The notes under the pieces are model-generated. The model ran no database searches. It worked only from the letters and a program-made list of their open reading frames with translations, and had not been told where the DNA came from. Shown here piece by piece: positions 39,229 to 50,507 of a stretch of 64,000 bases of DNA (position 1 is the stretch's first letter; the number at the start of each line of letters is the position of its first letter). Source of the stretch: an uncultured Gammaproteobacteria bacterium. Its GTDB lineage: Bacteria; Pseudomonadota; Gammaproteobacteria; UBA9214. Where the stretch lies: contig CAVVHS010000006.1 of NCBI GenBank assembly GCA_963748215.1, positions 339,259-403,258 of the forward strand, read 5' to 3'. The position numbers were made by a program, and so were the translations under genes.

Positions 39229-40638
39229 ATGAGTGTAAAAACACGATTTGCACCCAGCCCGACAGGCTACCTGCATGTCGGCGGTGCAAGAACTGCGTTG
39301 TTTTCATGGCTGTATGCCCGCAAGCACGGCGGCAAGTTCGTATTGCGCATCGAGGATACCGACCTTGAGCGGTCTACCCAGGAATCCATCAATGCCATTC
39401 TGGAGGGGATGACCTGGCTTGGGCTGGAGTATGACGACGGGCCGTTTTATCAGACGCACCGGTTTGACCGGTATAACAAGATAATCGACGATCTGATCGG
39501 CGGGGGGCTGGCCTATCGATGTAATTGTTCCAGAGATCGTCTCGATGCGTTGCGCGAGTCCCAGATGCAGCACAAGCTCAAGCCCCGATACGATGGACAC
39601 TGCCGGAAGCATTCCGTCTCGCCCGATGAGCCTCATGTGGTTCGGTTCTGTAATCCGGCGGATGGCAGCGTAGTCGTCGACGACCAGATCCGCGGCAAGG
39701 TCATTTTCAGCAATGACGAGCTCGATGATCTGATCATACGCAGGACTGATGGCTCGCCCACCTACAACCTGACCGTGGTGGTGGATGACATGGATATGGA
39801 GATTACACATGTCATTCGTGGCGACGACCATCTCAACAACACGCCGCGGCAGATCAATATTCTACGGGCACTCGGTGCCCAGCAGCCCGTGTATGCGCAT
39901 GTGCCTATGATTCTTGGCGATGACGGCATGCGCCTGTCCAAGCGTCACGGCGCAGTGAGCGTGATGGAATACCGGAATCAGGGGATACTCCCCGAGGCCT
40001 TGCTTAACTACCTGGTTCGACTGGGCTGGTCGCATGGCGACAGGGAAATATTCACGCTCGAGGAGATGGTCGAGTTGTTCGACATCAAGGATGTCAACAA
40101 GGCAGCTTCCGCATTCAACAGCGAGAAACTGCTGTGGCTGAACCAGTGCTACATTAAGGGGTCGGAGCCGGCCAGGATTGCCCGGCTCCTGAGCCCGCAC
40201 ATCGGGCAATTGGGTATCGATCCTGCCTGTGGTCCGGATCTGGTGGCAGTTGCCGAGGTGCAGCGGGAAAGGGCAAAGACACTGGTGGAAATGGCGGAAA
40301 TCAGTGCATTCTTTTATCGTGATTTCGAAGACTTCGATGCAGATGCGGCTGGCAAGTTTCTCAAGCTCGCAGCCCGCGAACCACTGCAGAAACTGCGTGA
40401 TGCCCTGGCAACAGTGCCAGAATGGGAGCCGGATGCCCTGCATCAGGTTGTCAAGGACGTCGCGGAGCTTCTGGATCTGAAGCTTGGCAAGGTTGCCCAG
40501 CCACTGCGGGTCGCCGTCGTGGGGCGGGCGGCCTCGCCCGGTATCGATGTGACCCTGCATCTGGTCGGGCGTGAGGCCTGTCTGCGCAGGATCGACAAGG
40601 CGCTTGATTATATCTTGCAACGGAGCAGTGAGGCCTGA
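39229..40638 (+). CDS. gltX: Glutamate--tRNA ligase
   Basis: [29 protein letters not shown] (HIGH) and KLSKRHG (KMSKS); 469 aa. Confidence 0.95.
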
Positions 40639-40641
40639 TTA

Positions 40642-42336
40642 ATGAATGATCTTGATATTGTGGCAGGCGGAAACTTCATACGCCAGACCATTGATGCAGA
40701 TATCGCCGCCGGAAAAAATGACGGGCGGGTCGTTACGCGGTTTCCGCCCGAGCCGAACGGTTACCTGCACATCGGGCATGCAAAATCCATTTGCCTGAAC
40801 TTTGGTATCGCGGAAGACTACAAGGGCAGCTGCAACCTGCGTTTCGATGACACCAATCCGCACAAGGAAAACGTCGAGTATATCGAGGCGATCAAGGCCG
40901 ATGTGCGCTGGCTGGGTTTCGAGTGGGACAGCCTGTACTTTGCGTCAGACTATTTCGAGCATTTGTACGAATTTGCCGTCGGGCTTATCAAGGCGGGCAA
41001 GGCCTACGTGTGTGACCTGTCTGCGGAACAGATACGTGAATATCGCGGTACGCTGACAGAGCCGGGTCGGCAGAGTCCCTATCGAAACCGCAGTGTGGGT
41101 GAAAATCTGGACCTGTTCGGGCGTATGCGTGCGGGCGAGTTCGAGGATGGCAAGCGCGTCCTGCGCGCGAAAATCGACATGGCATCGCCAAATATCAACA
41201 TGCGTGATCCCGCCCTGTACCGGATTCGTCACGGCGTGATCCATCATCAGACCGGTGCGGAGTGGTGTATTTACCCGATGTATGATTACACCCATCCCAT
41301 ATCGGATGCTCTAGAGGGGATTACACACTCGATCTGTACTCTGGAGTTTGCCGACCATCGTCCATTGTACAACTGGATACTGGATAACATACCGGCACCC
41401 TGTCACCCGCAGCAGATCGAGTTTTCCAGGCTCAATCTCGAGTATACCGTCATGAGCAAGCGCAAGCTGACCGAACTGGTCGGCGAGGGTTATATGGAAG
41501 GCTGGGACGACCCGCGCATGCCGACGATAGCGGGTCTGCGACGCCGGGGATACACGCCGGCATCGATCCGTGATTTCTGCGCGCGAATCGGCGTCAGCAA
41601 ATCGGAGAACACGGTCGAAATGGGCGTGCTGGAGAATTGCATTCGCGAAGACCTCAATATGAATGCGCCACGCCGGATGGCCGTTTTACATCCACTGAAG
41701 GTGATAATTACCGATTATCATTCGGCTCGAATCGAGCATATCGAGGTGGCAAATCATCCGCAGAACGACACCATGGGTACCCGCGCGCTTGCCTTCACCA
41801 GTGAACTCTATATCGACAGGAGTGATTTCCTGGAAGATCCGCCGAAGGGCTTCAAACGGCTGATTCCCGGTGGCGAGGTGCGATTGCGTAATGCCTACGT
41901 TATCCGCTGCAACGAAATCATCCGGGACACGCACGGGGAGATCATTGAATTGCACTGCAGTCACGATCCCGCCACGCTTGGCGCCAACCCGGAAGGTCGC
42001 AAGGTGAAAGGAGTGATTCACTGGGTATCGGCCCGTTCAGGCGTGACGGCGGAGATCCGCCTGTATGACCGCCTGTTCAGTCATCCCGTGCCGGATGCAG
42101 CCAGGGAAGGAGGGGACTACAAGGACTGCCTCAATCCGGATTCGTTGCGGACGCTTACTGGGTGTATTGTTGAGGCGTCGCTCGCGACTGCTGCCTGCGG
42201 CGAGAGCTTTCAGTTCGAGCGGGAAGGCTATTTTTGTGTCGAGTCAAGGCATTCAACAACACATGCACTGGTATTCAACCGGACCGTAACGCTGCGGGAT
42301 TCCTGGGCGAAAATCGAACGGGCGCAGAATGGCTGA
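40642..42336 (+). CDS. glnS: Glutamine--tRNA ligase
   Basis: [23 protein letters not shown] (HIGH) and VMSKR; 564 aa. Confidence 0.95.
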
Positions 42337-42565: not shown

Positions 42566-42642
42566 GTCCCCATCGTCTAGTCGGCCTAGGACACCGCCCT
42601 TTCACGGCGGTAACAGGGGTTCGAATCCCCTTGGGGACGCCA
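42566..42642 (+). tRNA. tRNA-Glu (TTC)
   Basis: GTCCCCATCGTCTAGTCGGCCTAGGACACCGCCCTTTCACGGCGGTAACAGGGGTTCGAATCCCCTTGGGGACGCCA. Confidence 0.9.
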
Positions 42643-43130
42643 TAAACCAAAAGGCCCGCTATTGCGGGTCTTTTGGTTTATCACCTCGGGAGGGGATGAG
42701 AACCCCGGGTTCGAGCCGAGCCACGCCAGGCGTGGCGAGACAACAACGCCGCAGGCGTTGGCCCCGCAGGGGTGAGGCGCGCAGCGACGAATAATCCCCT
42801 TGGGGACGCCATAAACCAAAAGGCCCGCTATTGCGGGTCTTTTGGTTTATCACCTCGGGAGGGGATGAGAACCCCGGGTTCGAGCCGAGCCACGCCAGGC
42901 GTGGCGAGACAACAACGCCGCAGGCGTTGGCCCCGCAGGGGTGAGGCGCGCAGCGACGAATAATCCCCTTGGGGACGCCATAAACCAAAAGGCCCGCTCT
43001 TGCGGGTCTTTTGTTTATCACCTCGCGAGGGGATGAGAACCCCGGGTTCGAGCCGAGCCATGCCAGGTGTGACAGGACAGCAACGCTTCAGGCGTGGCCC
43101 GGCAGGGATGAACTCTGGCTCGAAACACTA
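42621..43130. repeat. Tandem repeat, 3 copies of a ~170-bp unit that starts with the last ~22 nt of tRNA-Glu (att-core-like) and includes the terminator hairpin
   Basis: Units begin at 42621, 42791 and 42961. Copies 1 and 2 are identical; copy 3 is degenerate (ctcttgcgggtcttttgtttat ... catgccaggtgtgacagg). The period also shows as repeated peptide strings in the overlapping track ORFs. Confidence 0.75.
42643..42682 (+). terminator. Strong bidirectional rho-independent terminator hairpin after tRNA-Glu (first of three copies)
   Basis: AAACCAAAAGGCCCGCtattGCGGGTCTTTTGGTTT, a 16-bp stem. Confidence 0.6.
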
Positions 43131-44441
43131 CTTCTGCCTGAATATCCAGACGTCCTTGATGCCGAGCTCCTGCTTGACGGTTCCGGCATGCTTCTTGGCG
43201 GCGGCGTAACTTTCAAAACCGGCTATCTGCAGTCGCCAGTATTGCCTGCCATTCACCGTCGCGCTGTTCAGTTCGGCATTCTGTTTTGCGGCGCCGCTGT
43301 TTCTGCTGAAACGTTCAACGTAGGCCTTGTCAGGAGAGGAAAGCAGATTGATGACCCATGGGCCAGTGCTCGACGCAGGTTTGTCTGCCGTCATCAAAGC
43401 TTGAGAAGCTTCGGGGGCAGCTTTGCTTCCCGTGTCTTCGCGGACGGGCGTCGGCGGAGCAGTCCTGGTGATCGCGGCAACCGCATCTCCGGCAACCGGG
43501 GGTTTCGATGGCCTGGTTGCCGGTTGTGTGACCGTGCCTGCCATACCGGGACTGCTGCGCCCCGGCAGGTCAGGCTGGGCAGGTTCCTGATCGATGGCGT
43601 CGTCAGCAGCGGCTGTTGCAGGTCTGCTGGCCGCTGCAGGTATTTCCGGCTCCCTGGCAGGGCTGTCTGGTTTCCGCGCCTCTCGCGCTGGTGTGCTCGC
43701 GGAAGGCGGGATAACCTGGCCCAGTCTGCTAGCGAGATTGGCGAATGCCTCGTTCAGCGCAGTCATCCGGGCGTTGAGCGACGCATACCTGCCTTCCTGC
43801 AAGCTGGCGCTGAATACACGACTCTGTATGTCAGCGAGTTCTGTCGATTGCCGCTTGCTTAGCGTTTCGAGGGTACTGATGCGGCTGTCGATACTGGCGG
43901 TATAGACATAACCCCCGGTAATCACGCAGACGGCAAATACCGTGGCAAGAATAACTGAATAGAATGGCCGGTTATTCTGTTTCTGTGCGTGCTTTGTTGC
44001 CTGCCCGGAGAGCTTTTCATTAATGAGATTTGCGGTTGCCCTGCTGCTTGTGCCTCTCCTGTCCAGGCGGCCAAGCGAGGCTTCGAGTTTATGCTGTTCG
44101 CTGACCCGATAGGATTCAATCAGGTCCACCAGTACGGGGTCGGGCTTGTGAAATTCAACGTCGATGCTGTCCGCTTCGACATGTCGAACCCAGGAAGGGA
44201 TGGCAATTTTCCTTGTCTTGCCCTCATGCTTTATGGTCAGGTGAACATCGACGCTGTCGCCGTCCTTGAAGGTCAGCAGGCGTCCATCGGCATCACATTG
44301 CAGCTGCATGCCGTTCTGGCTGACATTCATGACGCGGCAGCCTTTTGGAACGGTTTTTTCGCCGATAAGGAGGGCGTTGATATTGACCGGCGTTCGCGCT
44401 TGACTTCTACGTTCCATAGCTCTGCTTGATAAGCTCCGCAA
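43128..44441 (-). CDS. PilZ-TM-coiled-coil-SPOR domain protein
   Basis: N-terminal PilZ c-di-GMP-binding motifs (RRSQAR = RxxxR; NVSQNG = N/DxSxxG), one TM helix (FYSVILATVFAVCVITGGYVY), a Pro/Ala-rich linker and a C-terminal SPOR-like peptidoglycan-binding domain (WVINLLSS...YWRLQIAGFESYAAAKK). Confidence 0.6.
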   Translation of the reverse strand: MRSLSSRAMERRSQARTPVNINALLIGEKTVPKGCRVMNVSQNGMQLQCDADGRLLTFKDGDSVDVHLTIKHEGKTRKIAIPSWVRHVEADSIDVEFHKPDPVLVDLIESYRVSEQHKLEASLGRLDRRGTSSRATANLINEKLSGQATKHAQKQNNRPFYSVILATVFAVCVITGGYVYTASIDSRISTLETLSKRQSTELADIQSRVFSASLQEGRYASLNARMTALNEAFANLASRLGQVIPPSASTPAREARKPDSPAREPEIPAAASRPATAAADDAIDQEPAQPDLPGRSSPGMAGTVTQPATRPSKPPVAGDAVAAITRTAPPTPVREDTGSKAAPEASQALMTADKPASSTGPWVINLLSSPDKAYVERFSRNSGAAKQNAELNSATVNGRQYWRLQIAGFESYAAAKKHAGTVKQELGIKDVWIFRQK

Positions 44442-44596
44442 GCTGGCAGCTGATCCGTTGATTCGTTCTGGGTTGCCCGGCGTGTGTCGGGTTGACGTGA
44501 ACTATACGATCATTAATGCAGAACGTCCATGCCTGTGTCAGGCAGGATTCTCCCGTGGTCGCCGACCGACCGGTGCCCGATGGAATATGTCGATAC

Positions 44597-45766
44597 TCAG
44601 TCTCTTCGGAGCTTGGCGTTGACGGTGATCGGGGTGGGGTAATTGAGCATGATCAGGTACGAGGAGGCTACAAAGGTGAGCAGTGTGGTCGCCTGGATGA
44701 GGTACGAGGCCCGGGAACTGATCGCGCCGGCATTCAGGGCCAGGACGGCTATCATAAGGGAAAATTCACTGACCTGGCCGAGCCGGACTCCCGCCTCGAG
44801 CGAGAGCTTGTGCTGTTCGCCGGAGTAACGGAGTAATCTCGAAAACACCAACGGTTTGGCGGCGAGCATGACGGTTGCGATGACTGCGGCAGGAATGAAG
44901 ACATCCGCCAGAACCGTGATATTGAAACCGGCGCCGAGCGAAAAGAAAAACATAATCAGGAAGAAATCGCGCAGCGGTTTGAAACTCTCGGCGATGAACA
45001 GTGATATCGGGTTCGTGGCCAGCGCCACGCCGGCAATGAAGGCGCCTGTCTCGTAGGAAAGGCCTGCCGTTTCCGCCAGCTGGGCCATGCCCAGGCACCA
45101 GCCGATCGCGGTAAGGAAAACATACTCCTGGATGGTATCAAAGCGCAGGATCAGTGGCTGCAGGACATAGCGTTCGAACAGAAAGGCGACTGTTATCAGG
45201 ACTGGAATCGCCAGCGCCAGTATTCCTATGCGCTGCCACTCGATGGCTGACTGCGAGAATGCGTCCAGAAAGACGAGAATAAATATCGCGAGGATATCCT
45301 GCAGCAGCAGGATGCTGACCATGACCTGGCCCATATGGCGGTGGTGCAGTGCCGTCGTGGGCAGCAGTTTCAGTCCGATGATGGTGCTCGAGAACATCAT
45401 GACAGCACCGATTATCAGGCTGTCGAAGGAACTGAACCCGAAAGCCCTGCCGATCAGGTAACCGGCCGCGCAAAAGGCGAGCGAGCTGACGGCAGTAACG
45501 ACCAGGGCCTCCCTGAACATCCGTGCAAGTTGCGAGGGCTGCAGGTTGAGTCCCAGCAGGAACAGCAGGAAGATGATGCCGATGTGGCCGATCTGCTGGA
45601 TTACCGAGGCGTCGGTTACCAGCTGCAGGCCCCATGGTCCGACAAGTCCGCCGAGCAGGATATATGCAACCAGCAATGATTGTCTGGCAAACAGCGCCAG
45701 GGCGGCGAGTACAGCAGCGCCGGTGAATATCAGGAATATGGAAAAGATGATCGAATGGTCAGGCAT
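44597..45766 (-). CDS. Monovalent cation:proton antiporter (CPA2/Na+-H+ exchanger family) membrane protein
   Basis: 389 aa, about 12 TM helices, CPA-type fold; no C-terminal RCK domain. Confidence 0.75.
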   Translation of the reverse strand: MPDHSIIFSIFLIFTGAAVLAALALFARQSLLVAYILLGGLVGPWGLQLVTDASVIQQIGHIGIIFLLFLLGLNLQPSQLARMFREALVVTAVSSLAFCAAGYLIGRAFGFSSFDSLIIGAVMMFSSTIIGLKLLPTTALHHRHMGQVMVSILLLQDILAIFILVFLDAFSQSAIEWQRIGILALAIPVLITVAFLFERYVLQPLILRFDTIQEYVFLTAIGWCLGMAQLAETAGLSYETGAFIAGVALATNPISLFIAESFKPLRDFFLIMFFFSLGAGFNITVLADVFIPAAVIATVMLAAKPLVFSRLLRYSGEQHKLSLEAGVRLGQVSEFSLMIAVLALNAGAISSRASYLIQATTLLTFVASSYLIMLNYPTPITVNAKLRRD

Positions 45767-46402: not shown

Positions 46403-47071
46403 TCAGGATATTTCGCTGAAGAAGAGCGCAAGGTTGAGCCGATTCTCTATTTCCAGTTTTCTGAAAATAGCGCTCAGGTGTGCCTTGACAGTGCGCTCCG
46501 AGATGTCGAGTTCGCGTGCAATCATTTTATTGTTGCCGCCGAGATGAACCATGCGTGCGACTTGCAGCTCTCTCGGCGTCAGGGTTCTGACCAGTGAATT
46601 GTCGAAATTGCTGTGCTGTAAGGGCACATTGCCCTCGCTGGCCAGTTCGCTGATCATCTCGGTGATCAGTTTTCTCTGTATCCAGTATTCTCCCTCGAGT
46701 ACCAGATTTACGGCGCGCGCAAGCAGTGCGGGCGTGATGTCATCCTTGCAGAAACCGCGTGCGCCGGCCTTGAACAGGCTGCGCTGGTCAACCAGCCTGT
46801 CAGATTGATTGTCGATGATGACCACGAAAATACCCGACAGTTTTCTTATCAGGCTGGTCAGGAATTCCGTCGTGTTATCCGCACAGACATGTGGATCGAT
46901 AAAGAGCAGGGTAGGTCTTTCGCTTGCGACGCAGGAATGCATGGCGGGCAGGGAAGTTATCCGCCGGGTTTCGTATTTTTTCCCCAGAACGCCGGTATAA
47001 CGGCCCGTGACAATATCGTCGCGACTGACAATCAGGATATAGTCATTTGCCGGTGATGCACTTGCTGCCAT
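46403..47071 (-). CDS. LuxR-family regulator with an atypical receiver-like N-domain (solo)
   Basis: C-terminal LuxR HTH (LTPRELQVARMVHLGGNNKMIARELDISERTVKAHLSAIFRKL). The N-domain is receiver-like with no cognate kinase adjacent. Confidence 0.7.
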   Translation of the reverse strand: MAASASPANDYILIVSRDDIVTGRYTGVLGKKYETRRITSLPAMHSCVASERPTLLFIDPHVCADNTTEFLTSLIRKLSGIFVVIIDNQSDRLVDQRSLFKAGARGFCKDDITPALLARAVNLVLEGEYWIQRKLITEMISELASEGNVPLQHSNFDNSLVRTLTPRELQVARMVHLGGNNKMIARELDISERTVKAHLSAIFRKLEIENRLNLALFFSEIS

Positions 47072-47759: not shown

Positions 47760-49748
47760 TTATCGCGTCAGGCTGGCACTGGCCGATTCCTGAGCCAATT
47801 CCGGCCTGCCGGTCAGATACCCTTGCAAACCATCGATATTCAGGCCTGTCAGTGTGTCGCGCTCGGCAGCGGTTTCCACGGACTGTGCGATTACCTGGAT
47901 ATCGAGACTGTGCAGGGTATCCGTGAGCGCCTGTACGAAGAACCGGTTGTCGCTGTTGCTGTCGATACCGCGTATGTAACTGCTGTCGATCTTTACAAAA
48001 CTGATATCCATGCTGCGCAGGTAGCCGAACGATGCGAACCCCTTGCCAAAATGATCAATGCCGCTCCTGCAACCCAGTGTATTCAGGCGTTCGACGAGGT
48101 TGCGGGCATTCTGGATGTTTGCAAGGACCGCGTACTCTGGGAATTCAACCAGTATATGTTTCGCTAGCGTGGGGGCATTGCCAAGTGTGCTGGATAACCA
48201 CTGGATGAAGACTGCGTCATGCAGGGATGTCGATGAAAGGTTGACGGCAAAAAGGGTTGACGGATCGGGGTTCTGTGCGAGGTATTCGAGCAGTCGTGTG
48301 ACAGCCAGCTTGTCAAGCTGGCTGGCGAGACCGAAACGTTCAGCCAGTGGTACGAATATGCCGGCATTGACACCGTTGTTGCTTTTGTCATCGATGCGTG
48401 CGAGTACTTCTTTGTGCAGCATGCCGCTACCCTGCGCTTTGGTTTGGTATACCGCTTGCATGTACAGCCTGATGGCGCCTTTGTCGATGACCTCGCGTAA
48501 TCGCTTGCGCCAGTTTTGCATGCTGTGTATCTCGGGCTGGTTGGCTGCCGGAGCCTGATAGCGCTGCCAGATGTTCTGGCCGCTTGCCTGGGCAGAACGC
48601 AGTGCCATGTCGGCCTCGGACAGCAATTCCGGCAGCGTATTGCCATGCCGCCACATTGCAATGCCGATATGACCGATGTCATTTGAATCGGCAAGGCCGT
48701 CAGCGCGGAGCTGCAGGAGATCCCTGCAAAGTGTCGCAGCGAGTGCGTCGGCGCTGCTGACCGGAAGACCGGTGACGACAATGCCGAAGCCGGCGCCCGA
48801 TATGCGGGCGGCAAAGCTGTTCTCAAGATAGGAAAGTTGCGACTTTATCAGCTCGCCCGTTCTTTTCAGCAGCATGTCTCCTGCCGTGTAACCGCTACGT
48901 TCGTTGACCCTCGATAAGTCGCGCAACTCGAGCAACAGCAGCGCACCCTGCGAGACTTCGTCCCTGCTATCCAGCATTGCACCGAACTGACAGTCGAAAT
49001 AGCGCCGGTTGCCAAGGCCGGTGACGGTATCCTGGTAGGCCTGCTCGCGCAGGCGCTCCGTCAGTGCAGACTGTTCGGTAAAGATTTCACCGACCTTCTC
49101 GGAAAGCCTGTTCATTGCCAGAACGACGCTGCGCAGTTCGGCGGTACGCGGCAGGCGTCTCTGGATCATGTACGAACGGTTACGTATGGCATCCGCCTGT
49201 AACTTAACCCTCGCCAGTGGACGCAGCAGGAACCTGACAGCGACAGTTGCGAGTACCAGGGTGACGACCGCGGCGACCAGGTACAGCATCAATGTATCCA
49301 TTGTCGTGGCCCATAGCTGATTGTAGGCGCGCCCGGTATTGCTGGTAACATGAATCCGGCCGGCCTGGCTCCAGCCGGACATGACCAGTGCCTCCATGGC
49401 AGGCGCTTGCAGGGTAATCGCTTTCACGAACCACTCCGGCGCGGCACCGGTGTCTGGCGGTACGCTCTTTTCGACCAGCGTGTCTCCATCAGCCGAGATC
49501 AGCGCAATACGCTGGTATTCGCCACGGTCAAATACGGCGCCGATCATGGTCGAAATCACCGGTATGTCCGGCGGTTGCACATACGGAGACAGCGACAGAC
49601 CCAGTGATGTTGCGGTATCCCGCGCATGTGTCTCGAGCTGCGCGGTCATGAACGTGCGCAGGTTTTGTGTGCTGATAGCGACTGTTGCGATGAAGCCGGC
49701 AATCAGTATCAGCACAATCCCCGTCGAGATCTGTCTGTAAAGTGTCAT
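47760..49748 (-). CDS. lapD: LapD-like inner-membrane c-di-GMP receptor (LapD/MoxY N-domain, HAMP, degenerate GGDEF, EAL)
   Basis: 662 aa: TM-periplasmic-TM, HAMP, a GGDEF-like domain whose signature is degenerate (RISGAGFGIV), and a C-terminal EAL-like domain. Directly adjacent to a LapG-type protease. Confidence 0.7.
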   Translation of the reverse strand: MTLYRQISTGIVLILIAGFIATVAISTQNLRTFMTAQLETHARDTATSLGLSLSPYVQPPDIPVISTMIGAVFDRGEYQRIALISADGDTLVEKSVPPDTGAAPEWFVKAITLQAPAMEALVMSGWSQAGRIHVTSNTGRAYNQLWATTMDTLMLYLVAAVVTLVLATVAVRFLLRPLARVKLQADAIRNRSYMIQRRLPRTAELRSVVLAMNRLSEKVGEIFTEQSALTERLREQAYQDTVTGLGNRRYFDCQFGAMLDSRDEVSQGALLLLELRDLSRVNERSGYTAGDMLLKRTGELIKSQLSYLENSFAARISGAGFGIVVTGLPVSSADALAATLCRDLLQLRADGLADSNDIGHIGIAMWRHGNTLPELLSEADMALRSAQASGQNIWQRYQAPAANQPEIHSMQNWRKRLREVIDKGAIRLYMQAVYQTKAQGSGMLHKEVLARIDDKSNNGVNAGIFVPLAERFGLASQLDKLAVTRLLEYLAQNPDPSTLFAVNLSSTSLHDAVFIQWLSSTLGNAPTLAKHILVEFPEYAVLANIQNARNLVERLNTLGCRSGIDHFGKGFASFGYLRSMDISFVKIDSSYIRGIDSNSDNRFFVQALTDTLHSLDIQVIAQSVETAAERDTLTGLNIDGLQGYLTGRPELAQESASASLTR

Positions 49749-49808: not shown

Positions 49809-50507
49809 TCAGCGCGGCAGGGCAAGCTGTTCGTCGCTGATCCGGGCGATAACTTCCTTCCAGCGGCTCAGTCGTTCCGGATCCCCAACGTGCTGGTCCA
49901 TGCCGCGTGCCTTTACCAGCCACAACCCGTTACCGTTGAAACTATACACCGGTAACAGGTCGGTCCTGCTGGACGATGTGCGAATTTCCATAACCAGGTT
50001 ATCGAGTACCAGGGGGTCCGCATCGGATGTACTGTAATACGTTAACACCATATGCGCCTGCTCGAGCTCAAGTGCCTTGACATAGGTAAGCCGCATACGC
50101 TCGGCGGGTATGCCCATCTGGCGGAGCGTGAAATATTTCGCGATGGAGAAATCCTCGCAGTCACCGCCGTTCGATGCCAGCATCTGCAGGGGGGTCGCCC
50201 AGTAGTCCTCCTTGCCCCAGTGATCGATATCGCTGATGAAGGTAACCTTGTTGAAAAAATCGTTGGTCCTTTGCAATTTCTGCATGTCATCCAGCCCGTT
50301 GCTGGCCCGGATCATATCCTGCCAGTCGCTGATCCGCTGCAGTGCATGTTCGCCATACGTCTCCCTGATTCCTGCCAGTGATTCGACTGCCAGCGTAAAT
50401 TCCTCGCCATTGCACGGTGCAATGCCGGCAAGGCTCAGTATGCCCGCCAGCAGGATGCACAGCAGGGGAGAGGCGGTCGCGAGCGGACGTGCTGCGGACG
50501 CTGACAT
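49809..50507 (-). CDS. lapG: LapG-like periplasmic transglutaminase-like cysteine protease (BTLCP)
   Basis: Signal peptide plus ...NGGDCEDFSIAKYF...H...D, the Cys-His-Asp triad context of BTLCP/DUF920. Confidence 0.7.
   Translation of the reverse strand: MSASAARPLATASPLLCILLAGILSLAGIAPCNGEEFTLAVESLAGIRETYGEHALQRISDWQDMIRASNGLDDMQKLQRTNDFFNKVTFISDIDHWGKEDYWATPLQMLASNGGDCEDFSIAKYFTLRQMGIPAERMRLTYVKALELEQAHMVLTYYSTSDADPLVLDNLVMEIRTSSSRTDLLPVYSFNGNGLWLVKARGMDQHVGDPERLSRWKEVIARISDEQLALPR

Follow-up and report, generated by a model that had tools for sequence, protein, structure and literature searches.

Bacteria change between motile and sessile life mainly through cyclic di-GMP (c-di-GMP), whose known PilZ effectors have flagella, pili, exopolysaccharide synthases, and transcription as their targets. 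Growth typical of biofilms includes chaining, filamentation, and aggregates. In Pseudomonas aeruginosa, Alg44 is the PilZ-transmembrane (TM)-periplasmic c-di-GMP receptor of alginate synthesis. Escherichia coli DamX, FtsN, and DedD are bitopic SPOR-domain division proteins; RlpA, for which SPOR structures with denuded glycan come from P. aeruginosa, is a lipoprotein lytic transglycosylase without a cytoplasmic part.

A 2025 review of c-di-GMP effectors leaves peptidoglycan and the septum unmentioned, and our full-text literature search found no description of a PilZ-SPOR fusion, as the preliminary description of this locus had supposed. Such a fusion is encoded in the window (the whole stretch of 64,000 nucleotides, from an uncultured gammaproteobacterium, that was analyzed). 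We put about even chances on its product being a bitopic inner-membrane septal protein in the style of DamX and FtsN, whose cytoplasmic head is a PilZ c-di-GMP receptor that acts by the mechanism proposed below. A receptor tethered to septal peptidoglycan would link c-di-GMP directly to cell division, separation, or new-pole identity.

Gene, start codon, and domain architecture

The mechanical open reading frame (ORF) at 43128..44441 on the minus strand yields 437 amino acids (aa) when counted from its first in-frame TTG (44441), the start adopted in the preliminary description. We place the start 24 nt downstream, most likely at ATG 44417 (MERR...), because of amino acid conservation in distant homologues: the equivalent Met is the start in 89 of 91. 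The most likely coding sequence is thus 43128..44417 (−), 429 aa plus stop codon. At the nucleotide level, comparison of the start region with L002, an 88%-identical locus, shows one synonymous change; the two sequences are very similar. A protein in one 90%-identity cluster with that of the window has 429 aa in its NCBI annotation, under the name PilZ domain-containing protein. Automatic gene calling hides the PilZ domain in some records: for P0001, identical in sequence, the start was set at Met38, giving 400 aa and cutting away the RxxxR motif. A σ70-like promoter candidate (TGGACG-17-TATAGT; 44501..44529, minus strand) sits in the 180-nt gap behind the upstream Na+/H+ exchanger gene; it is a consensus match only, and σ70-like sites in the region are no more numerous than in shuffles. 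A terminator-like hairpin, CCCGCAAGAGCGGG, followed by a T-run, occurs 122 nt past the stop codon (42993..43006, minus strand), inside the last RtT-like repeat unit, and recurs in each repeat unit.

Residue numbers given for features refer to the 429-aa protein, and all of them are encoded on the minus strand. The preliminary description had proposed a canonical PilZ module joined through a single TM helix, a coiled-coil, and a Pro/Ala-rich linker to a C-terminal SPOR domain, with PilZ on the cytoplasmic and SPOR on the periplasmic side; each of these elements stood up to our analysis, and neither outcome that it had named as refuting, a failed SPOR profile search or a topology with both domains in the cytoplasm, was observed. 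The domain architecture is well supported, and computed evidence also supports the topology. In the AF2 model, the PilZ barrel, the TM segment with its adjoining helices, and the SPOR fold are all confident. A variable cytoplasmic linker (residues 119-150; 43968..44063), with a majority-residue fraction of 0.29 and pLDDT below 50, leads from the PilZ domain to the TM helix (residues ~151-174; 43896..43967), which is identified by hydrophobicity and is a helix in the model. This segment, FYSVILATVFAVCVITGGYVYTA, is the only hydrophobic one (Kyte-Doolittle 19-residue maximum, 1.96), and exactly one is present in each of the 91 aligned relatives; because it is single, the PilZ and SPOR domains are placed on opposite sides of the membrane. 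No signal peptide precedes the 150-residue folded N-terminal domain, and the flank N-terminal to the segment is enriched in K/R residues (it has more than the C-terminal flank in 51 relatives and fewer in 12). Both features favor an N-in topology, so by prediction the PilZ domain should be cytoplasmic and the SPOR domain periplasmic.

Immediately beyond the membrane lies a conserved pair of helices (residues 175-236; 43710..43895) with the motif F-S-x-S-L-Q-E-G-R-Y-A-S-L-N-A-R-M-x-A-L. The model places helices at 151-207 and 211-235; conservation is 0.61 to 0.70, and the 3-4 spacing of hydrophobic residues, together with the two predicted helices, is consistent with a coiled-coil. Within the motif, "EGRYASLNAR" has no real motif match to FtsN "WRYIKEL," and its reading as an FtsN-like essential domain survives only as a speculative version of the septal role, taken up with the SPOR domain below. 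The Pro/Ala-rich periplasmic linker that follows (residues 237-350; 43368..43709) is disordered in the model (pLDDT ~35-40) and consists of 22% Ala and 18% Pro (measured over residues ~245-358 in the 437-aa numbering); its length among relatives varies from 60 to 179 residues.

PilZ head and SPOR domain

The PilZ domain (44064..44414) comprises a six-stranded split β-barrel (residues ~24-92) and a C-terminal helix and strand (93-118). It matches PF07238 over residues 10-110 in the 437-aa numbering (E=1.9e-8; 35 bits, gathering score 22.5; profile positions 1-98 of 102), a profile that is also matched in 74 of the 91 relatives. Both c-di-GMP-binding motifs can be read from the sequence: RxxxR in the N-terminal tail (R4-S-Q-A-R8; 44394..44408) and NxSxxG (N31-V-S33-Q-N-G36; 44310..44327), which in the 437-aa numbering are R12-S-Q-A-R16 and N39-V-S41-Q-N-G44. 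The 23 residues that separate them equal the R21-to-D44 spacing of Alg44, where mutation of either residue abolishes c-di-GMP binding (residue numbers and mutations from the review of c-di-GMP effectors). The tail carrying RxxxR has low pLDDT, as expected for a flexible apo tail.

Across the family, the barrel is the most conserved region of the protein (majority-residue fraction of 0.77, versus 0.63 for the tail), with S33 kept in 89 of 91 aligned sequences and G36 in all 91. RxxxR is retained by 41 of 89 core-family members and by 37 of 50 PilZ+SPOR cluster representatives. It has been lost from the other 48 core members, in several clades and also sporadically (P0003, P0006, and P0110); in P0003, the closest full-length homologue, the break is R8Q. 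The Asn of NxSxxG is missing in one clade. Given these losses, c-di-GMP binding appears dispensable for the core function, whatever that is.

A c-di-GMP-independent protein could produce the same pattern: a SPOR-domain accessory of division or the cell wall, whose PilZ barrel is a head for protein-protein interaction and whose nucleotide binding is vestigial or irrelevant. The repeated loss of RxxxR and the better conservation of barrel than tail fit this explanation, and there is a precedent in the PilZ protein of the P. aeruginosa type IV pilus, in which critical residues are missing and c-di-GMP is not bound (review). It also gains from uncharacterized sister SPOR proteins of the same environmental lineages (such as P0159, P0161, P0163, and P0165) that have no PilZ domain: these keep the TM segment, the periplasmic LLEGKYASLNAR motif, and a Pro/Ala linker, and their SPOR domain is of the subtype seen in the window protein (GxWVINLLS...VKGR..WRVQITGF...KDVWIFK), but they carry a short, unrelated cytoplasmic tail of ~50 to 70 residues in place of PilZ. 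Against it, both motifs are intact in the window protein and in its closest relative, L002, and 34 of the 50 representatives, the most divergent subfamilies among them, keep both at the fixed 23-residue spacing, which is near-constant across the whole set; this argues for ligand binding that is ancestral and still widely selected. We consider a c-di-GMP-independent role unlikely. In sister clades the arginines for ligand binding, or PilZ altogether, have been lost while the remainder of the protein is kept; this is a natural experiment in which the core function should become distinguishable from its regulation by c-di-GMP.

The C-terminal SPOR domain (residues 351-429; 43131..43367) matches PF05036 over residues 359-430 in the 437-aa numbering (E=1.2e-5; 26 bits versus a gathering score of 21; profile positions 2-71 of 76), and 90 of the 91 relatives match at E≤0.01. 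When solved structures were searched by sequence, the SPOR domain alone, as a single sequence, matched no SPOR structure, and the family profile retrieved only low-complexity or coiled-coil noise; we therefore relied on fold comparison, in which the domain shows the β-α-β-β-α-β (RNP-like) arrangement. The most conserved glycan-contact residue of SPOR domains is a β1 Gln that touches NAM/NAG: RlpA Q270, FtsN Q251, and DamX Q351 (PMC6895207). At this position the family has an Asn, N357, invariant in 91 of 91 ("WVINLLSS" versus DamX "YTLQLSSS"), on sequence grounds a conservative amide-for-amide change. Other residues implicated in septal localization or glycan contact are DamX S354 and W416 and FtsN R285/P. 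aeruginosa RlpA R309 (PMC6895207). Three family-invariant residues, S360, W424, and R395, align with DamX S354, DamX W416, and the β3 Arg of E. coli RlpA "WRIQ," respectively; by way of RlpA, R395 would be the counterpart of FtsN R285. Because the alignment of the E. coli FtsN SPOR domain to the family profile is unreliable and sets FtsN β1 on family β3, we drew the FtsN equivalences solely by the indirect way of DamX, RlpA, and PMC6895207.

A more specific version of the septal role would make the protein functionally analogous to FtsN or DamX but gated by a second messenger: the conserved juxtamembrane stretch F-S-x-S-L-Q-E-G-R-Y-A-S-L-N-A-R would act on a septal peptidoglycan synthase or hydrolase as the FtsN essential domain does, and c-di-GMP would switch this activity through the TM helix. 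We found no recognizable FtsN essential-domain motif in the window protein and no detectable similarity to FtsN, DamX, or DedD outside SPOR, and we regard this version as improbable. If true, c-di-GMP would directly control how the septal wall is made or how daughter cells separate, and signals would travel inside-out from c-di-GMP to the divisome; we found no description of such a route.

Distribution and gene neighborhood

The PilZ+SPOR architecture recurs in at least 50 clusters at 50% identity, all of them from metagenomes or metagenome-assembled genomes (MAGs) of uncultured gammaproteobacteria. No cultured host appeared among 30 genome loci or in protein searches; the genome scan relied on core-family-specific patterns and may pass over more distant members in cultured species. 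The full-length architecture, with conserved residues across all modules, is present in more than 90 homologues that were assembled independently, and the fusion is kept in two lineages whose gene neighborhoods are unrelated. We count its retention in so many clusters and in both lineages, along with the strong conservation of the PilZ barrel, as selection for the fusion. A scan of the protein against NCBIfam gave no significant match (best E=0.024, far below cutoffs). JGI records automatically name some distant members "DedD," which we read as based on SPOR alone.

In the window, the gene lies beside a tRNA-Glu gene (42566-42642) and an array of 169-bp repeats (42624-43111), the location given in the preliminary description. 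Its setting is a housekeeping one, with gltX-glnS-tRNA on one side and the Na+/H+ exchanger on the other; in a distant subfamily, the setting is leuS-lptE-holA. The preliminary description had also pointed to the nearby c-di-GMP genes lapD (47760-49748) and lapG (49809-50507). These are indeed present 3.3 kb away on the same strand, separated from the PilZ-SPOR gene by the exchanger gene and a LuxR-family gene, but a conserved functional linkage did not emerge. The order LapG-LapD-LuxR-Na+/H+ exchanger-PilZ-SPOR, convergent with glnS-gltX, is kept in ~20 loci, where the neighbors are 75 to 90% identical; at that level of identity the genomes are close relatives, and the synteny reflects their kinship. 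Distant members have entirely different neighbors: a PAS histidine kinase and ATP sulfurylase; BipA and a GspH-like gene; or DUF1451/dsbB/leuS-lptE-holA. A functional link to lapD/lapG is thus unsupported. Among the close and distant loci compared, the gene has no conserved operon partner, is in no exopolysaccharide, pilus, or flagellar operon, and has no adjacent division gene; no synthase gene is near it in the window or related loci.

These neighborhoods bear on a different use of the same architecture, in which SPOR would hold the protein on denuded glycan that persists at the septum-derived pole (a "birth scar"), and the PilZ head would recruit or release polar machinery (pili, flagellum, or adhesin export) according to the c-di-GMP level. 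The layout suits a peptidoglycan-anchored scaffold with a cytoplasmic receptor head, and pili or flagella are the targets of many known PilZ proteins; YcgR, MotI, FimW, and PilZ are among the structural neighbors of the PilZ domain or appear in the review. A GspH-like pseudopilin gene also lies near one distant locus, L025. We nevertheless think a new-pole landmark improbable, as pilus, flagellar, and adhesin genes show no conserved linkage in either lineage and the strongly conserved periplasmic helical motif, superfluous for cytoplasmic recruitment, suggests a periplasmic or membrane partner.

The Alg44 layout invites another comparison: an N-terminal cytoplasmic PilZ domain, one TM segment, and a periplasmic part are common to both proteins, and the Alg44 PilZ domain is a structural neighbor. 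The window protein could then be a cofactor of a surface-polymer or adhesin system, such as the LapD/LapG module retained alongside it in ~20 related loci, with SPOR as a generic wall anchor. This is very unlikely in our judgment: the protein has neither a membrane-fusion/HlyD domain nor a glycosyltransferase partner, synteny with lapD/lapG is confined to close relatives, and the two intervening genes and a promoter-like site of its own separate the PilZ-SPOR gene from the module. Finally, an artifact of chance motif matches or of two genes joined by a frameshift or in assembly, to which the disagreement of gene callers over the start (P0001) and the apparent frameshift split of the L025 relative might point, is effectively refuted by the conservation of the full-length architecture among the homologues, by profile matches in relatives and scores of both HMMs above curated cutoffs, and by confident predicted folds.

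Proposed function and comparison with known systems

To return to the septal c-di-GMP receptor that we favor, its layout would run from a cytoplasmic PilZ head through the TM helix, the juxtamembrane periplasmic helical module, and the disordered Pro/Ala linker to the C-terminal SPOR domain. We infer its ligand binding, septal targeting, output, and functional coupling. As a member of its domain family, SPOR would bind the peptide-free ("denuded") glycan left by cell wall amidases and so concentrate the protein at constricting septa. The intact motifs and predicted fold suggest that the RxxxR tail and the NxSxxG hairpin of the barrel bind c-di-GMP. The further steps are speculative: with the ligand bound, the PilZ head might adopt another conformation or oligomeric state; this change might pass via the TM helix to the periplasmic helical pair or alter contact with a cytoplasmic partner; and a divisome or septal-peptidoglycan partner might thereby be modulated, so that the c-di-GMP level sets constriction or daughter-cell separation.

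Among the described systems, RlpA differs in its glycan-contacting Q270 (PMC6895207), which is replaced by Asn in the PilZ-SPOR family. Alg44 has a periplasmic membrane-fusion-protein domain and belongs to the alginate operon, whereas the window protein, in which no HlyD-like membrane-fusion Pfam domain was found, has helices, a disordered linker, and SPOR, and housekeeping neighbors. DamX, and more loosely FtsN and DedD, have the bitopic N-in layout, low-complexity linker, and C-terminal SPOR domain of the window protein; their E. coli contexts (ftsN-hslVU, aroKB-damX-dam [aroB-damX-dam], and folC-dedD-cvpA) are absent from the window locus, and the β1 Gln of DamX (Q351) and FtsN (Q251) is Asn in the window protein. 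None of these three division proteins has a PilZ head, whereas the window protein does.

Gene call, domains, and predicted topology

The mechanical open reading frame on the minus strand (43128..44441; 437 aa) is counted from its first in-frame TTG, the start adopted in the preliminary description. Alignments of 22 and 91 homologues point elsewhere: nearly all start at a Met equivalent to ATG 44417 (MERR...), and the residues after it are conserved down to ∼40% overall identity. We therefore take ATG 44417, rather than TTG 44441, as the most likely start, giving 429 aa; P0261 (MGB5473878.1), which shares the 90% cluster, has this length, and NCBI names it "PilZ domain-containing protein." A database protein of identical sequence (P0001) is called from Met38 of the 437-aa ORF (44328-44330, versus 44415-44417) and has 400 aa; this short call removes RxxxR, so the PilZ annotation is lost and the domain hidden, with SPOR alone among the Pfam matches of the record. 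A σ70-like site in the 180-nt upstream gap (44529..44501, minus strand) and a terminator-like hairpin 3′ of the stop codon (43006..42993, minus strand), both consensus matches only, would fit a monocistronic unit.

In the 437-aa numbering, Pfam-A places PilZ (PF07238) at residues 10-110 (E = 1.9e-8; 35 bits versus a gathering score of 22.5) and SPOR (PF05036) at residues 359-430 (E = 1.2e-5; 26 bits versus 21); an NCBIfam scan of the protein gave no meaningful match. Direct reading finds RxxxR as R12-SQA-R16 and NxSxxG as N39-VSQN-G44 (R4..R8 and N31..G36 in the 429-aa protein). The AlphaFold2 model, for which the 91-sequence alignment was the input, begins with a disordered tail bearing RxxxR (residues 1-23; pLDDT <50), as expected for apo PilZ, followed by a β-barrel with a C-terminal helix and strand (∼24-117; pLDDT mostly >90) and a disordered linker (121-149; pLDDT <50). 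A long helix that includes the transmembrane (TM) segment (151-207; 10-residue block means of 77 to 93) and a second helix (211-235; block means of 64 to 90) lead to another disordered linker (239-346; pLDDT ∼35 to 40) and a β-α-β-β-α-β domain (354-427; pLDDT ∼95). Foldseek matches in the PDB support both domain assignments: Alg44 PilZ with c-di-GMP (4xrn_B) and BcsA PilZ for the former, and RlpA SPOR with denuded glycan (6i09_A; TM 0.71), DedD, DamX, and CwlC for the latter. Ala and Pro make up 22% and 18% of the second linker, whose length in relatives ranges from 60 to 179 residues; the helical stretch past the TM segment has a regular 3-4 hydrophobic spacing when read from sequence. All of the architectural elements proposed in the preliminary description (PilZ with its motif pair, TM helix, coiled coil, Pro/Ala-rich linker, and SPOR) are present, and on computational grounds we hold the PilZ-TM-SPOR architecture to be nearly certain.

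A hydrophobicity scan found exactly one TM-grade segment (residues ∼151-174) in the query and in 91/91 relatives, and the window protein has no N-terminal signal peptide. A single TM segment puts PilZ and SPOR on opposite sides of the membrane, as had been suggested. The 150-residue folded domain that precedes it and the flanking K/R counts (higher on the N-terminal side in 51 relatives, equal in 28, and higher on the C-terminal side in 12) lead us to expect a cytoplasmic PilZ and a periplasmic SPOR.

Cys41 (44295-44297) and Cys27 (44337-44339), both on the minus strand, lie at the two ends of the NxSxxG β-hairpin. Across the 91 core-family members, C41 never varies and C27 is conserved in ≥90%; two distant PilZ-SPOR proteins (P0162 and P0168) lack the second Cys. 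Lying beside the ligand site, the pair may have a redox- or metal-related role.

Conservation of ligand residues and spread of the fusion

The family SPOR-region profile aligns end to end with the Escherichia coli DamX SPOR and partially with that of E. coli RlpA. Residues that matter in SPOR domains include Q351, S354, and W416 of DamX; Q251, S254, W283, R285, and I313 of FtsN; and Q270 and R309 of Pseudomonas aeruginosa RlpA, the Gln (DamX Q351 = FtsN Q251 = RlpA Q270) being the sole highly conserved polar contact residue (Alcorlo et al. 2019, PMC6895207). The counterparts of DamX S354 and W416 (S360 and W424) and of the RlpA β3 Arg (R395) are invariant in the family. The position of the Gln is occupied by an invariant Asn (N357), a conservative yet real departure in one of the features that define SPOR domains.

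A word-indexed search returned at least 205 relatives, mostly full length and annotated PilZ and/or SPOR, all from metagenomes or metagenome-assembled genomes (MAGs) named Gammaproteobacteria or Pseudomonadota. Among 1.84 billion cluster representatives, a profile search gave 2666 matches at E ≤1e-3, 626 at E ≤1e-10, and 97 at E ≤1e-30. We assigned architecture classes to the best 150 of the 2666 with sub-profiles: 50 carry PilZ plus SPOR, with exactly one TM segment in 47/50, and 90 lack PilZ but share the SPOR subtype. Among these 90, a sister group (P0159, P0161, P0163, and P0165) has, like the window protein, the TM segment and, in the periplasm, F(S/P)ASL(Q/L)EG(R/K)YASLNAR; the cytoplasmic tail of this group is short and unrelated.

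Both ligand motifs are kept in 34/50 PilZ+SPOR representatives, nearly all of which have a 23-residue spacing from RxxxR to [DN]xSxxG. This equals the distance between R21 and D44 of Alg44, mutation of which abolishes c-di-GMP binding (2025 review of c-di-GMP effectors). In the core family, RxxxR is kept in 41/89 and both motifs in 39/89; whole clades ("MAHPQHAK," "MEQHSQSG," and "MEQRAR") lack RxxxR, as does the closest full-length homologue, P0003 (R8Q). The majority-residue fraction is highest in the PilZ barrel (0.77), followed by periplasmic helix 2 (0.70) and SPOR (0.65). Such evolutionary lability of the ligand motif would suit an interaction head blind to c-di-GMP, but both motifs are kept here and in most divergent subfamilies, and we consider a blind head unlikely. 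In our reading, c-di-GMP binding is probably ancestral and retained in the window protein, adding regulation to a core function that can do without it.

One MAG (CAVWDM01) encodes, besides a PilZ-SPOR protein (locus L011), a second bitopic paralogue with the same SPOR subtype (locus L030, 7203-8495), whose cytoplasmic head differs (MERLKQQL...RKQRERL, in duplicate) and which also contains a long coiled coil. Heads of this kind are also seen in P0186 and P0188, suggesting that SPOR proteins with exchangeable cytoplasmic heads have expanded in this lineage.

Genomic neighborhood and the repeat array

On the plus strand lie gltX (39229-40638) and glnS (40642-42336), followed 3′ by tRNA-Ala, tRNA-Glu (42566-42642), and a tandem array (42624-43111) of a 169-bp unit (2.9 copies; 95% identity), the repeats noted earlier as lying beside the gene. 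Each unit opens with ∼19 nt that repeat the 3′ end of tRNA-Glu and also has a hairpin and a T-run. The Rfam model for RtT RNA (RF00391; gathering score, 45) matches two of the units at 61.2 bits (42675-42811 and 42844-42980) but gives no more than 21.5 bits for the third (43014-43142), which overlaps with the PilZ-SPOR stop codon. RtT is known from the E. coli tyrT operon, where it accompanies tRNA-Tyr, whereas here the array follows tRNA-Glu. Eight syntenic relatives conserve tRNA-Ala and tRNA-Glu and have no RtT at the gathering score.

On the minus strand are genes for a Na+/H+ exchanger (44597-45766), a LuxR-family regulator (46403-47071), a complete LapD (47760-49748; LapD_MoxY_N, GGDEF, and EAL; 662 aa), and LapG (49809-50507; Peptidase_C93; 232 aa). 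The lapD/lapG pair, 3.3 kb from the PilZ-SPOR gene and on the same strand, is kept in related MAG loci, and the window gene order in ∼20 loci from uncultured Gammaproteobacteria; since neighbors there are 75 to 90% identical, these loci are close relatives and their synteny carries little functional weight. In three loci (L018, L023, and L031), the gammaproteobacterial-type gene and synteny occur in MAGs labeled "uncultured Halobacteria archaeon" (MFD03551 bins); glnS, gltX, and LapD there are 75 to 78% identical to those of the window, so the labels look wrong or the bins contaminated.

Distant members have other neighbors: a PAS histidine kinase and ATP sulfurylase, or BipA and a GspH-like gene. 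One distant subfamily has its own conserved context (leuS-lptE-holA, then DUF1451, PilZ-SPOR, and dsbB). In its loci L036, L038, and L040, the PilZ-SPOR gene is always preceded, at a distance of ∼90 nt, by a codirectional DUF1451 gene (PF07295; ∼172 aa), which could encode a partner specific to this lineage; dsbB lies downstream in convergent orientation, and leuS-lptE-holA upstream in divergent orientation. We found no universal partner gene across the core-type and distant loci compared. Proximity to lapD/lapG, correctly reported in the preliminary description as to position, is therefore not evidence for a shared pathway. In both lineages, housekeeping genes surround the PilZ-SPOR gene, not clusters for polysaccharides, pili, or flagella. 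A landmark of the new pole, recruiting polar machinery, is somewhat less probable than a c-di-GMP-blind head, an Alg44- or Lap-linked surface-polymer role is improbable, and an artefact is scarcely credible.

A candidate septal c-di-GMP effector

Both domains show most of the features that define their families, and the protein falls outside the FtsN, DamX, DedD, and Alg44 orthologous groups. Public automatic names are "PilZ domain-containing protein," "SPOR domain-containing protein," "PilZ domain/SPOR domain," and "cell division septation protein DedD." In agreement with the preliminary description, we found no PilZ-SPOR fusion, or PilZ protein tied to septal peptidoglycan, in open-access or bioRxiv full text, although a domain census in a subscription journal may exist; peptidoglycan and septum are both absent from the 2025 review of c-di-GMP effectors. 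What is new can be seen from either side: a PilZ receptor whose localization or output module is undescribed, or a SPOR protein whose signaling head is. This clean, recurrent, and suggestive architecture makes direct c-di-GMP action at the septum testable; interest is tempered by a predicted function, a labile ligand motif, and hosts that are all uncultured.

With moderate confidence, we propose a septum-targeted c-di-GMP effector. By binding denuded glycan, SPOR would gather the protein at constriction sites, while the RxxxR tail and NxSxxG hairpin would bind c-di-GMP; we infer both activities from family membership and conserved residues. A resulting change in the head might pass through the TM segment to the conserved pair of periplasmic helices, or else reach a cytoplasmic partner; more speculatively, the output might be to tune septal wall synthesis, hydrolysis, or cell separation.

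Our proposal derives from the layout of bitopic SPOR division proteins (cytoplasmic head, TM segment, conserved juxtamembrane periplasmic segment, disordered linker, and SPOR), which this protein shares, combined with an Alg44-like head. DamX is the closest bitopic SPOR protein, by SPOR sequence and by its sizeable cytoplasmic part, and for transmission of c-di-GMP occupancy across the inner membrane by a bitopic PilZ protein, the precedent is Alg44.
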